64,000 nucleotides of DNA. Origin: an uncultured Azospirillaceae bacterium (GTDB taxonomy: Bacteria > Pseudomonadota > Alphaproteobacteria > RF32 > CAG-239). The translations under genes were made by a program, and so were the position numbers. Below are positions 3,887 through 62,601 of the stretch, in pieces. The stretch's first letter is position 1; every line of letters begins with the position of its first letter. The notes under the pieces are model-generated. The model was not told where the DNA came from. It saw nothing but the letters and a program-made list of their open reading frames with translations, and did not search any database. The stretch is from assembly GCA_964655915.1 (NCBI GenBank), contig CAZZNV010000001.1, positions 10,012 to 74,011 on the forward strand, read 5' to 3'.

Positions 3887-4858
3887 ATGGAAGAGATTAT
3901 TTTCCCCAACCAGATAAGAATGTATCGCCGCCTGAGAGGTCGTTCCATGCAGGAGTTGGCTGACCATTTGAACGTTAGTTTGTCAGCTATTTCCAAAATT
4001 GAAAAAGGCTATCGTCGTGTGGATCAAGAACAGTTGGTGCGTGTTGCCGAGTTTTTGGATTGTCCTTTGCAGGAACTTTTTGTCAATGAACAAAACTCTC
4101 AACAAGAAATTGTTCAAGCTTGGCGCAGAGAGCAGGAACGCCGCAATAAAATTAATGAAAAAACAGGTCTTAAGACGCTTGGCGCCGGTCTACGGCAAAT
4201 TCGTAATGAAAAGAATTTGACCTTGATTGAGGTCGCCGAGAGCGCCGACATGACTCTTTCCGTATATCACCGTATTGAAATGGGACAGAGGGAAGTTTCC
4301 GATAAGGAATTTAAAAATATTGCTAAAGCTTTGAAAATTAGCTCCGAAGAGTTGCGTGACGAGATTAAGAGCCTTGATGAGAAAGGCATGTTGGAAGAAA
4401 TTATCCAGCGCAATGATGCTAAGTACAAGCTATTATCTAATCCTCGGGGGGCTATTGCTTCCTTTGGAAACGCTTCTCCTGACGGAATGAAAATTTCTGT
4501 TTACGGGACTGCCGGAAAAGACGGTAATATTGAGCTTGATTTTGAAGAGGAAATCAAAAAAGTTCAACGTCCGATTCAACTTTACAATAAAAAAGATGCC
4601 TATGCCGTTAATTTGTGCACACGTCGCTTGGGCTCTTTGCTTCCGACTCGCTCTATTTTGTATGTTGACCCGCAAGATGTTGTCAGCATTGGTGATATTG
4701 CTCTGTTCTATGTCAATGAGCATGAGGCAAAGATTGTCAGCATTAGAGAAGATGATGACGGCAATTTGTATGGCATTCGTTGGAATCCTGATGAAAAGAT
4801 TGTTTTGACGGATAATGATTTGCCTCAAATACATAAAGTTGTTCTGATAAGTTTGTAA
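3887..4858 (+). CDS. XRE-family transcriptional regulator with two HTH domains and a C-terminal S24/LexA-like (apparently non-catalytic) domain
   Basis: Two Cro/C1-type HTH segments (MQELADHLNVSLSAISKIEKG; LTLIEVAESADMTLSVYHRIEMG). The C-terminus (GDIALFYVNEHEAKIVSI...NLYGIRWNP) resembles the S24 beta domain. GAGG RBS 9 nt before ATG 3887; the ORF track's in-frame ATG at 3842 is an alternative start. Confidence 0.65.
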   Translation: MEEIIFPNQIRMYRRLRGRSMQELADHLNVSLSAISKIEKGYRRVDQEQLVRVAEFLDCPLQELFVNEQNSQQEIVQAWRREQERRNKINEKTGLKTLGAGLRQIRNEKNLTLIEVAESADMTLSVYHRIEMGQREVSDKEFKNIAKALKISSEELRDEIKSLDEKGMLEEIIQRNDAKYKLLSNPRGAIASFGNASPDGMKISVYGTAGKDGNIELDFEEEIKKVQRPIQLYNKKDAYAVNLCTRRLGSLLPTRSILYVDPQDVVSIGDIALFYVNEHEAKIVSIREDDDGNLYGIRWNPDEKIVLTDNDLPQIHKVVLISL

Positions 4859-52090: not shown

Positions 52091-52122
52091 AAAAAAGGCT
52101 ATGGAAACATAGCCTTTTTTAT
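52091..52122 (+). terminator. Rho-independent terminator after pilin gene
   Basis: Hairpin AGGCTATGGAAACATAGCCT followed by T6. Confidence 0.6.
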
Positions 52123-52452
52123 TGTGGCATCAGCGCATCAGAACAAAGCACCGGTTTCCTAAACATCACAGGTAAAAAACAGGGATAATATTTACATTTT
52201 CCGTCAGCGGCAGATGAGTTTGCGCCAAACAAACAACCGCCCCTTCTCCTACTTGAAGTCCGGCTTTTTCAATAGTTTTTTTGAATATACATCTGCAAAC
52301 CCCGACTATTTTATCATTTAATGCTAAAACAGTCGAAAATCATTTAAAGTCAAGCCACATTTACTCGGGTTTATATTGGTTTCGGCAATCTTAAATCTAT
52401 TAAAAAAACATCTTGCTTTTTGTTGCGTTTAACGTTAATTCATAGATAGGCC

Positions 52453-52529
52453 GTCGGCGTAGCTCATCAGGATAGAGCAACAGTTTCCTAAACTGTGGGT
52501 AGTGGGTTCGAGTCCCGCCGCTGACGCCA
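52453..52529 (+). tRNA. tRNA-Arg (anticodon CCU)
   Basis: Hand-folded cloverleaf. Acceptor GTCGGCG/CGCTGAC (one G-U pair). D-arm GCTC-ATCAGGATA-GAGC. Anticodon arm ACAGT-TTCCTAA-ACTGT. T-arm GTGGG-TTCGAGT-CCCGC. Discriminator G plus encoded CCA. Confidence 0.8.
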
Positions 52530-52533
52530 AAAT

Positions 52534-52563
52534 AAAAAAACACCCCAATTAGGGTGTTTTTTT
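52534..52563. terminator. Bidirectional terminator shared by tRNA-Arg and the convergent sulfatase-family gene
   Basis: A-run, hairpin ACACCCC-AATTA-GGGTGT, T-run. Confidence 0.55.
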
Positions 52564-60793: not shown

Positions 60794-60884
60794 GGATAGA
60801 TGGCCGAGTGGTCGAAGGCGCACGATTGGAAATCGTGTATACCTCCAAAGGGTATCCAGGGTTCGAATCCCTGTCTATCCGCCA
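60794..60884 (+). tRNA. tRNA-Ser (anticodon GGA)
   Basis: Hand-folded. Acceptor GGATAGA/TCTATCC. D-arm GCC-GAGTGGTCGAA-GGC. Anticodon arm CACGA-TTGGAAA-TCGTG. Long variable arm typical of class II. T-arm CAGGG-TTCGAAT-CCCTG. Discriminator G and CCA encoded. Confidence 0.8.
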
Positions 60885-60918: not shown

Positions 60919-60986
60919 TTGATGATGAGAGCGTTAAGATTTTGCCATGAGAAAGAAGGCGATTTTGCATAAAACAAAGGGGGATT

Positions 60987-61583
60987 TTATCCCGCCTTCG
61001 TTTTTAGGTATGTATATAATGTTTTATAATCCACTTTTAGCATACAAGCTATCTTTGTTTTAGGTATATTTTGTAACAACATTTTATCAATCAACGCCTC
61101 TTTTCCAGATAGCTTGGTGACTTTATTTTTTCTTCCTTTCGGCCTTCCGATAGGTTTGTTTTCGGCTTTTAATCTGGCCAAACTTTGTTTGGTGCGCTGA
61201 GATATTAAGTTGCGTTCTATTTCTGCAGACAAACCAAAGGCAAACGCCAAAACTTTACTTTGAATATCTGAACCTAATTTATAATTATCTTTAATTGTCC
61301 ATACCTGACAATTTATGTTCATGCAATAATGTAAAATGCTCATTACTTGTAAGAGATTGCGCCCCAGTCGGCTTAATTCACTTGCAATAACAATATCATC
61401 CGGTTTTAATTTTTTTAATAGTTTGCCTAATTTTCTATCTTTCAAATCTTTTTTTGATGAAATTGTTTCCTCAATCCATTGGCTAACACAAATATTATTT
61501 TCTCTGGCAAAATTTTCTATTTCAAATTTTTGATTTTCTTGATGCTGTAAATCGGTTGATATTCTAATATAACCATAAATCAT
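60987..61583 (-). mobile_element. Small serine recombinase (resolvase/Hin-Gin invertase family) gene
   Basis: AAGGAG RBS 5 nt before ATG. N-terminal catalytic motif (MIYGYIRISTDLQHQENQ), with the catalytic Ser near residue 10. C-terminal HTH (KTKIACMLKVDYKTLYTYL). About 198 aa. Adjacent to tRNA-Ser and to perfect inverted repeats. Confidence 0.8.
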
Positions 61584-61652
61584 GACTACTCCTTTCCATT
61601 TGTTTGCTAAAAAGGGTAGGCTAAAAAGATATATAACATATTGAAAATAAAT

Positions 61653-61787
61653 GAACAATTCTTTTCCATAGTATCTTGTATATCCTAAAAGTCAATAAAG
61701 TTTTCATCTATCAATGCTAATGTGCCAGGCGCGCGTATCTCGTTTGATTTTAAAAACAAGTTATAATACTATGGAAAAGAATTGTTC
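61653..61787. repeat. Perfect 22-bp inverted repeats (61653-61674 GAACAATTCTTTTCCATAGTAT and 61766-61787 ATACTATGGAAAAGAATTGTTC) flanking a 91-bp segment: candidate invertible DNA switch
   Basis: The two 22-mers are exact reverse complements. They lie between the recombinase gene and the OMP gene. The enclosed segment ends in a consensus TATAAT. Confidence 0.6.
61739..61767 (+). promoter_or_regulatory. Candidate sigma70-type promoter (-10 TATAAT at 61762-61767, weak -35) inside the inverted-repeat-bounded segment, oriented toward the OMP gene
   Basis: Perfect TATAAT 87 nt upstream of ATG 61854. The -35 region is poor (TCGTTT). Confidence 0.3.
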
Positions 61788-61853
61788 GGTTTTCCGCATA
61801 TAGGGTAAATAGAGCAATTTGTGTCTTAAAACTTTTTATAAAAGGAAATACTT

Positions 61854-62528
61854 ATGAATAAAGCTTTATTGTTAGCCGGTGTTGCCACAGTATTATTTGC
61901 TGCCAATGCCAACGCAATTGAATATACTCCTTATGTTTCAGCAAAGGTAAGTTATGCAAAAACTGATGTAGATTATTCACAAATGCATGGCAAAACATAC
62001 CGTTCATCAGATTTAGATGATAAAGTTTGGGGTGCTAAACTTGCTGTCGGCGTTGCAACTCCTGTTCCACATGGTGCTGTAAGAACCGAATTGGAATATG
62101 CTTTCTCTCAAACATTTAAAGCTGATTTTACAGATGCTGAAACAGCAAAGGCCGGCGGTAGAGCTAAGATGAAAGGCGATATTAATACATATATGTTGAA
62201 CGCCTATTATGATATTGACACAGGAACTAAATTTACTCCTTATGTTGGAGCCGGTATGGGTGTTGCTCGCCTTAAAGCCAGAGGAAATGTTGATTTCGAC
62301 GGTGAAAGAGTTTCTGACTTCAGCAAATCTAAAAACAATTTTGCTTGGCAACTCGGTGCCGGTGCCGCTTATGCTTTGACGGACAACGTATCTGTTGATG
62401 TCGGATACAGATATACAGATGCAGGAAAAGTAAATGGCACAGCTTCCTTCACAGGAGATGACAAACCCAGCATCAAAACAGAAACTACTATGCATGAATT
62501 CCTACTCGGTGCAAGATATAGCTTCTAA
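61854..62528 (+). CDS. Outer-membrane beta-barrel protein (OmpA-like/Omp25/Opa/OmpX-type small porin family)
   Basis: AAGGA RBS. Signal peptide MNKALLLAGVATVLFAANANA. Alternating amphipathic beta-strands with aromatic girdle residues. C-terminal RYSF with terminal Phe. 224 aa. Confidence 0.7.
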   Translation: MNKALLLAGVATVLFAANANAIEYTPYVSAKVSYAKTDVDYSQMHGKTYRSSDLDDKVWGAKLAVGVATPVPHGAVRTELEYAFSQTFKADFTDAETAKAGGRAKMKGDINTYMLNAYYDIDTGTKFTPYVGAGMGVARLKARGNVDFDGERVSDFSKSKNNFAWQLGAGAAYALTDNVSVDVGYRYTDAGKVNGTASFTGDDKPSIKTETTMHEFLLGARYSF

Positions 62529-62566
62529 TTTTATTTATTGAAGCAAGTAGTTTTTTTCATGAGAAT

Positions 62567-62601
62567 AGGCTGTATAAGAAATTATACAGCCTATGTTTTT
62601 A
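62567..62601 (+). terminator. Rho-independent terminator after OMP gene
   Basis: Hairpin AGGCTGTATA-AGAAAT-TATACAGCCT followed by a T-rich run. Confidence 0.55.

Follow-up and report, generated by a model that had tools for sequence, protein, structure and literature searches.

Promoter inversion as a means of phase variation has been studied in depth in Bacteroidales and enterobacteria but is, to our knowledge, essentially undescribed in the uncultured gut Alphaproteobacteria that carry the cassette considered here. The cassette lies in a 64,000-nucleotide stretch of one contig from an uncultured Azospirillaceae bacterium (hereafter the window), where a small serine recombinase gene and a gene for an outer-membrane beta-barrel protein (OMP) are separated by a short segment with inverted repeats near its ends. 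The explanation that best accounts for the whole of our data, and that we consider probable, is that this is a self-contained phase-variation cassette consisting of a local invertible promoter, the invertase that would flip it and an OMP gene as cargo.

The DNA invertases Hin, Gin, Cin and Pin (Din) act on inverted pairs of palindromic sites with an asymmetric 2-bp core, and their genes lie alongside; the locus in the window is built in the same way, and within this group Gin offers the closest structure. The hix sites are 26 bp long with a central dinucleotide AA, whereas the sites described below are about 32 bp. Hin/Gin-type segments span 1-4 kb and carry invertase or tail-fibre genes, whereas the segment in the window, at about 129 bp, is far from a kilobase-scale coding segment: it is non-coding, holds promoter elements only and leaves the invertase gene outside. 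With its short, repeat-bounded promoter segment between a surface-protein gene and a recombinase gene, the locus also resembles the fimS-type invertible promoters (the invertons of PhaseFinder and DeepInverton), although fimS uses tyrosine recombinases and the enzyme here is a serine recombinase. The invertase itself is of the same family as Mpi (Ssr2), the master serine invertase of the capsular-polysaccharide promoters of Bacteroides fragilis, and shares with it a small size, an association with short promoter segments for surface structures and a gut bacterium as host. Mpi works in trans at 13 dispersed regions and is encoded head-to-head with the tyrosine recombinase tsr19 (PMC4747536). 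The window, by contrast, has a single site pair, placed immediately ahead of the invertase gene; its host is alphaproteobacterial, and the promoter can be turned toward the gene of the invertase. According to a survey of a defined gut community, invertases beside invertons are generally not placed to be driven by the inverton promoter (PMC11892184), whereas the conserved promoter described here points at the invertase in most assemblies. A promoter flipping toward its own invertase is unusual, and our literature search found no description of this alphaproteobacterial system. By these comparisons, the cassette would be closer in its mode of action to a local switch of the Hin or fimS type than to Mpi of B. 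fragilis.

The invertase and its crossover sites

The recombinase matches the resolvase domain PF00239 (E=1.7e-28) and, with 294.9 bits over 1-196 of 203 profile positions, passes the equivalog cut-off of 272 for NCBIfam NF009949 (PRK13413), a profile labelled "master DNA invertase Mpi family serine-type recombinase". Its start is the ATG at 61583, which gives a protein of 198 aa as in all homologs; a longer open reading frame beginning with TTG does not mark the true start. The closest solved structure is that of the phage Mu Gin invertase (4m6f; near full-length alignment, E=7.6e-13). The catalytic motif YIRISTD is aligned to YVRVSTN of Gin and the alignment extends through the C-terminal domain of Gin, and by this route both features of the Mpi family are present, namely a resolvase-type domain with the nucleophilic Ser and a C-terminal DNA-binding helix-turn-helix region. 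Several close homologs from uncultured gut Alphaproteobacteria carry the same NCBI family name, and the Bacteroidales relatives are 59-64% identical. By sequence, the recombinase is thus a member of the Mpi family. Its lone site pair next to the invertase gene, with no further site-like sequence in the 64-kb window and none away from such pairs in 340 kb of related loci, favors a local switch over a master invertase.

The locus had been picked out in a sequence-only reading, which described a serine recombinase gene downstream of tRNA-Ser, two exact 22-bp inverted repeats and an enclosed TATAAT facing an OMP gene, and proposed that inversion switches the OMP ON and OFF. Its basic observations hold: the minus-strand open reading frame downstream of tRNA-Ser(GGA) encodes a resolvase domain, the arms are exact copies with 91 nt between them, and TATAAT (61762-61767) lies 87 nt ahead of the OMP ATG at 61854. 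The OMP gene as partner of the switch is likewise borne out, both by its profile matches (PF13505 OMP_b-brl, E=1.2e-20; also Opacity and Surface_Ag_2) and by the same arrangement in relatives. The earlier interpretation had the right kind of system, since the two orientations found among relatives point to site-specific inversion by the serine invertase encoded next to the switch, but its promoter polarity and its definition of the sites were wrong.

With regard to the sites, we searched the window for copies of the 22-mer GAACAATTCTTTTCCATAGTAT with up to 3 mismatches, using 100 dinucleotide-preserving shuffles as the control. The two arms are the only copies (shuffles, 0/100), and the pair is by far the best inverted repeat of the whole window. 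A metagenome scan with GAACRRTTYWWTTCCATANTA gave 49 matches, which we attribute to chance because none has a recombinase or OMP homolog and their GC content ranges from 26% to 70%; of the 49 matches in a viral-contig scan with the non-inverting flank TGTTCMYTTATTTTCAAT, none was relevant. The 22-mers had been described as not internally palindromic and, for that reason, as atypical of hix-like sites. The 22-mer lacks a palindrome because it is only the core plus the inner half-site of a palindromic hix-like site of about 32 bp, which straddles the outer edge of each 22-mer. A weight matrix built from 46 sites of 23 loci (window included) has the consensus tATTGAAAAtAAAgG-AA-CanTTnnnTTCaATa, an imperfect palindrome of about 32 bp centred on AA. 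The proximal site of the window has 12/15 dyad matches, and the outer half of the distal site agrees with the distal-outer consensus of the family, TGCGAAAAACYG. The matrix scores of the two sites (Table 1) compare with a maximum of 13.3 bits in shuffles, 22.0 for the lowest genuine site and 11.3 for the next-best distinct position in the window; a minus-strand match of 14.6 bits at 61639 comes from the proximal site itself, owing to its palindromy.

In the 340 kb of related loci that were scanned, an inverted site pair, and always one pair, lies directly upstream of the recombinase gene in 36 loci. In these loci, which come from many species, the proximal GTTC begins about 73 nt upstream of the recombinase start, at a constant distance. 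The matrix scan found no further site-like sequences elsewhere in these 340 kb or in the window, and no cis site pair in the Bacteroidales homolog loci and in some alphaproteobacterial loci. A search for exact or near-exact inverted repeats upstream of the recombinase in 29 genome loci also found nothing, but this result is misleading: the inner half-sites of the relatives' two sites differ, so that alignment is needed to reveal the sites. Alignment of the intergenic regions shows that homology extends over the whole region upstream of the recombinase throughout the family, with conservation of the two repeat positions. We considered, and rejected, the possibility that the sites are the excision ends of the cassette, since they are internal and inverted.

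One lineage (P0030; L013, L019, L094 and L095) has an Mpi-family homolog without a cis site pair and, about 400 bp downstream, a 654-aa autotransporter gene. The targets of this invertase, if it has any, must be located elsewhere.

Inversion in relatives and the direction of the promoter

Evidence for inversion comes from the comparison of related loci. Positions 4787-4931 of L026 are the reverse complement of 4931-4787 of L028 at 97% identity, and the flanks of this flip are collinear (left, 4756-4792 at 94.6%; right, 96.7% over 4 kb). The junctions fall within GAACAG/CTGTTC, at the centre of the palindrome, and L026 is flipped relative to L009 and L008 as well. A second, older flip distinguishes L007 from L016 and L017 (L007 and L016 are 75% identical when flipped and 59% when compared directly), and L006 was grouped with the L007 orientation by the order of its half-sites. 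At the level of sequence comparison, these two cases demonstrate that the segment has inverted in related loci. In another related locus (L149), the Logan contig SRR36242686_195933 has its first base 65 nt before the invertase ATG and thus a few nt beyond the outer edge of the proximal crossover site. If the sample held both orientations, a branch in the assembly graph would be expected at this point.

With regard to the direction of the promoter, our analysis departs from the earlier proposal. Within the switch, a promoter scan reported only TTGACT-16-TACTAT, on the minus strand. In 26 related loci, as in the window, TTGAC(T/A)-16/17-TAnnnT lies 42-43 nt inside the recombinase-proximal end and reads toward the recombinase, with its -10 in the inner half-site of the crossover site; L016 and L017 have a TTGACA slightly further in, with the same direction. 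The conserved promoter of L026 and L007, both of which are flipped, reads toward the divergent genes. In the window, the fixed stretches that separate the switch from the two start codons gave no promoter-like match in the scan, the one match on the OMP side being inside the OMP coding sequence. As assembled, the putative family promoter of the window faces the recombinase and not the OMP. In L006, L008, L011, L016 and L017, the leader (about 71 nt from the proximal site to the invertase ATG) contains a weak, non-inverting promoter-like TTTTCA-16/17-TAAAAT, which could be an orientation-independent basal promoter of the invertase in those lineages; this match is not present in the window.

The opposite polarity, in which the OMP is ON as assembled by way of TATAAT and inversion turns it OFF in the manner of fim or hin, is in our view unlikely. 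It has in its favor that TATAAT, 87 nt ahead of the OMP start, matches the -10 consensus perfectly and that the end toward the OMP represents, in diverged form, a genuine promoter end of the family, which makes some transcription toward the OMP plausible. However, no -35 lies 16-18 nt from TATAAT (the spacing to TTGATT is 12 nt), and the hexamer is missing from the promoter scan. Nor would inversion deprive the OMP of a -10, as had been suggested, since TACTAT lies within both repeat arms and is retained; rather, a flip would put the OMP before TTGACT-16-TACTAT, which is both the better match and the family-conserved one, and OMP transcription should rise.

The segment of the window is set apart from those of its relatives in several respects. 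In all relatives the inner half-sites are dissimilar, and hence no repeat is obvious there, whereas in the window they are identical at both ends. The OMP-facing end (61743-61787) is an inverted homolog of the L028 promoter end (83% over 46 bp), with no A/T-rich tract upstream of its TTGATT-17-TACTAT, and the recombinase-facing end is of the type found in L031 and L039. Self-complementarity of the segment is 71%, as against 50-62% in relatives. The perfect 22-bp repeat is thus explained by a diverged copy of the promoter end that faces the OMP, unlike the situation in any relative. By these alignments the segment looks chimeric between two lineages, with promoter ends at both extremities, and its inversion would probably swap a stronger and a weaker promoter rather than turn the OMP cleanly ON or OFF. 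An assembly chimera of two orientations was rejected as the source of this structure, because the segment ends diverge beyond 22 bp and a second assembly of the same strain (L001) agrees. Midway between the two outward promoter-like elements (61720-61736, plus strand) there is a short GC-rich hairpin followed by a T-rich tail, which has no counterpart in the segments of relatives.

The transcript of the invertase may be subject to an additional level of control. In the window, a leader hairpin is predicted to pair with the Shine-Dalgarno sequence (Table 1), and the same kind of hairpin, formed by a pyrimidine tract and the Shine-Dalgarno, is the minimum-energy fold in 11/12 family leaders, with z down to -5.2 (besides the window: L002, L007, L012, L014, L015, L016, L018, L020, L031 and L089). 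The stems vary between lineages and the Shine-Dalgarno pairing is kept; RNAalifold found no consensus structure for the recombinase leaders, and the hairpin emerged when the leaders were folded one by one. These folds are no more than suggestive of a translational brake on the invertase.

Proposed mechanism and its alternatives

Our working model is as follows. Dimers of the invertase would occupy both sites and bring them together in a synapse, and cleavage at the central AA/TT followed by rotation would invert about 129 bp (61656-61784); the predicted flipped junctions are GAACAATTCTTTTCCATAGTAT followed by TATAACTTGTTTTTAAAATC and GGATATACAAG followed by ATACTATGGAAAAGAATTGTTCGG. In the standard design of the family, a single promoter (TTGACT-16-TAnTAT, with its -10 in the inner half-site) would read out through the crossover site, either into the invertase gene, as in the orientation of most assemblies, or, after a flip, into the divergent cargo gene. 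We infer that the predicted promoters are active and that they are the only ones. In the window, where both ends carry promoter elements, a flip would take the OMP from low to high and the invertase from high to low and would not be a clean ON/OFF event. Invertase output would probably be damped by the hairpin over its ribosome-binding site and possibly also by binding of the invertase over its own -10. By extension from its relatives, the switch is presumably active in the window's own strain.

Several observations weigh against this model: (i) neither assembly of the window's strain is flipped, as the Logan assembly L001 (run SRR9335148) matches the window exactly in this region, orientation included, and the two may not be independent; (ii) one orientation, with the promoter toward the invertase, is found in nearly all assemblies, many of which represent loci that are not independent; (iii) the promoters are consensus matches, and because the two ends differ only by 9/12 versus 8/12 matches, the size and even the direction of the change in expression are uncertain and (iv) a loop of about 129 bp is short for synapsis by a serine invertase, and a DNA-bending protein would probably be needed. 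With regard to (ii), we looked for orientation polymorphism within species in the homolog clusters P0038, P0030 and P0004-P0007, with near-identical places collapsed, and found the majority orientation only. The dominance of a single orientation is not obviously predicted, because the switch would turn off its own invertase; if a flip removes the sole promoter of the invertase, the flipped state should trap cells. The bias would therefore call for selection against cargo-ON cells, a directional reaction or basal expression of the invertase from elsewhere.

A different account of the same features is that the paired sites now serve mainly as operators, through which the invertase represses itself at its own -10 (as resolvase does at res), with no meaningful rate of inversion; with promoter ends on both sides, inversion would be of little effect in any case. 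We regard this as improbable. In its favor, the proximal site overlaps both the -10 of the invertase promoter and the point where transcription probably starts, the segment has an unusual degree of symmetry, with promoter-like ends on both sides, and a single orientation is seen for the window's strain and dominates across assemblies. Nevertheless, both sites score well above the lowest genuine site of the family (38.5 and 27.8 bits versus 22.0), the invertase reading frame is intact and retains the catalytic Ser, the exact match over 22 bp speaks for recent or maintained sites and the relatives demonstrably invert; autorepression and inversion are, moreover, compatible. Finally, short terminal inverted repeats around some 90 bp look at first sight like a miniature inverted-repeat transposable element, and the 22-mers had been suggested to be a remnant of one, but an element of this kind, or a generic dispersed repeat unrelated to the recombinase, is scarcely credible given two copies only in 64 kb at ≤3 mismatches, metagenome and viral scans that returned no related match with biological context and site positions fixed relative to the recombinase start in 36 loci of many species.

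We therefore return to the invertible-promoter model, in which the inferred consequence of a flip in the window is that OMP expression would go up and invertase expression down.

A recurrent cassette with exchangeable cargo

The features of the locus are collected in Table 1. The window holds a minimal cassette core of 1.6 kb adjoining a tRNA-Ser gene. The order recombinase-switch-OMP is repeated in L008, L009, L020, L028 and L089-L093, and the OMP homologs in the same slot of L008, L009, L020 and L028 are 47-51% identical to the OMP of the window, whose best NCBIfam match, to the Rickettsia Adr adhesin subfamily, is at 83 bits under the cut-off of 210. In the closest relatives, with recombinases 86-89% identical, the cargo slot holds variable SHOCT, DUF805 or MORN proteins; the relatives in which the module of switch and invertase is carried by an integrase-bearing element comprise L089-L093, L031-L039 and L145-L148. 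In P0038, a very widespread relative indexed in 179 blocks of the collection, the OMP-switch-recombinase module lies inside an integrase-bearing element with genes for a tyrosine integrase (DUF6538 + PF00589), a DUF6626 protein, a second resolvase and a RhuM-like protein. None of these other element genes (integrase, DUF6626, second resolvase, RhuM-like) was found in the window. These comparisons show that the 1.6-kb cassette recurs in integrase-bearing elements with interchangeable cargo.

Table 1. Positions of the cassette, its predicted switch elements and the flanking tRNA gene in the window
Feature	Position	Strand	Support or remark
tRNA-Ser(GGA)	60794-60884	+	ARAGORN; context only, cassette start ~85 bp further downstream
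Shared cassette (recombinase, switch, OMP and OMP terminator)	60970-62590	.	blastn against L089, L031, L028, L009, L020, L039
Mpi-family small serine invertase, 198 aa, catalytic Ser in YIRISTD	60987-61583	-	PF00239, NF009949, Gin 4m6f alignment
Predicted leader hairpin pairing with Shine-Dalgarno GGAAAGGAG just 5' of the invertase AUG	61586-61619	-	minimum-energy fold -10.9 kcal/mol, z=-1.5
Recombinase-proximal crossover site TATTGAAAATAAATG-AA-CAATTCTTTTCCATA, 32-bp imperfect palindrome, central AA 61654-61655	61639-61670	.	matrix 38.5 bits
Left arm of exact 22-bp inverted repeat GAACAATTCTTTTCCATAGTAT (core, inner half-site and -10)	61653-61674	+	
Predicted invertible DNA between central AA and TT, ~129 bp	61656-61784	.	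flip junctions of relatives and site anatomy
Family-conserved sigma-70-like promoter TTGACT-16-TACTAT (TTGACT 61695-61690, TACTAT 61673-61668), toward the recombinase as assembled	61668-61695	-	promoter scan
Weaker promoter-like element TTGATT-17-TACTAT toward the OMP, overlapping TATAAT 61762-61767	61744-61772	+	8/12 consensus matches; under scan threshold
Right arm of exact 22-bp inverted repeat	61766-61787	+	
Distal (OMP-proximal) crossover site, minus strand ATATGCGGAAAACCG-AA-CAATTCTTTTCCATA, central TT 61785-61786	61770-61801	.	matrix 27.8 bits
OMP, outer-membrane beta-barrel protein, 224 aa, signal-peptide-like N-terminus; cargo gene facing the switch	61854-62528	+	PF13505
Intrinsic terminator-like hairpin (13-pair stem, then T run) 3' of the OMP gene; cassette end	62565-62594	+	

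Weak direct repeats surround the cassette (60937-60953 versus 62549-62565, 82%; 60987-61006 versus 62582-62601, 80%) and could be remnants of the boundaries of its insertion, or simply chance. Elsewhere in the window, a 21-nt inverted repeat (52115-52135 and 52519-52539; 2 mismatches, 383 nt apart) has a right arm that overlaps the 3' end of tRNA-Arg(CCT), 52453-52529, and is possibly a relic of an integration site.

We tentatively entertain, at somewhat less than even confidence, a broader idea, namely that the cassette is a portable, self-coupled toggle of 1.6 kb that is spread by integrase elements among gut Alphaproteobacteria and in which a single invertible promoter is the sole one for both the invertase and the cargo slot. 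If this were true, the supply of invertase would be high when the cargo is OFF and low when it is ON, so that asymmetric switching rates would be built in, and the two-promoter copy in the window would be a natural derivative with relaxed coupling.

When it is attached automatically to these alphaproteobacterial proteins, the name "master DNA invertase Mpi family" may suggest a larger role than they have. What the locus offers is a defined 32-bp recombination site in a system of one enzyme and one site pair that is small enough for direct testing, and a natural design in which the promoter of the flipping enzyme itself flips, which makes predictions of switching bias directly testable. Given that the switch appears to travel as a module with exchangeable cargo (OMP, SHOCT, DUF805, MORN), mobile elements may confer phase-variable surface traits on the bacteria that carry them.

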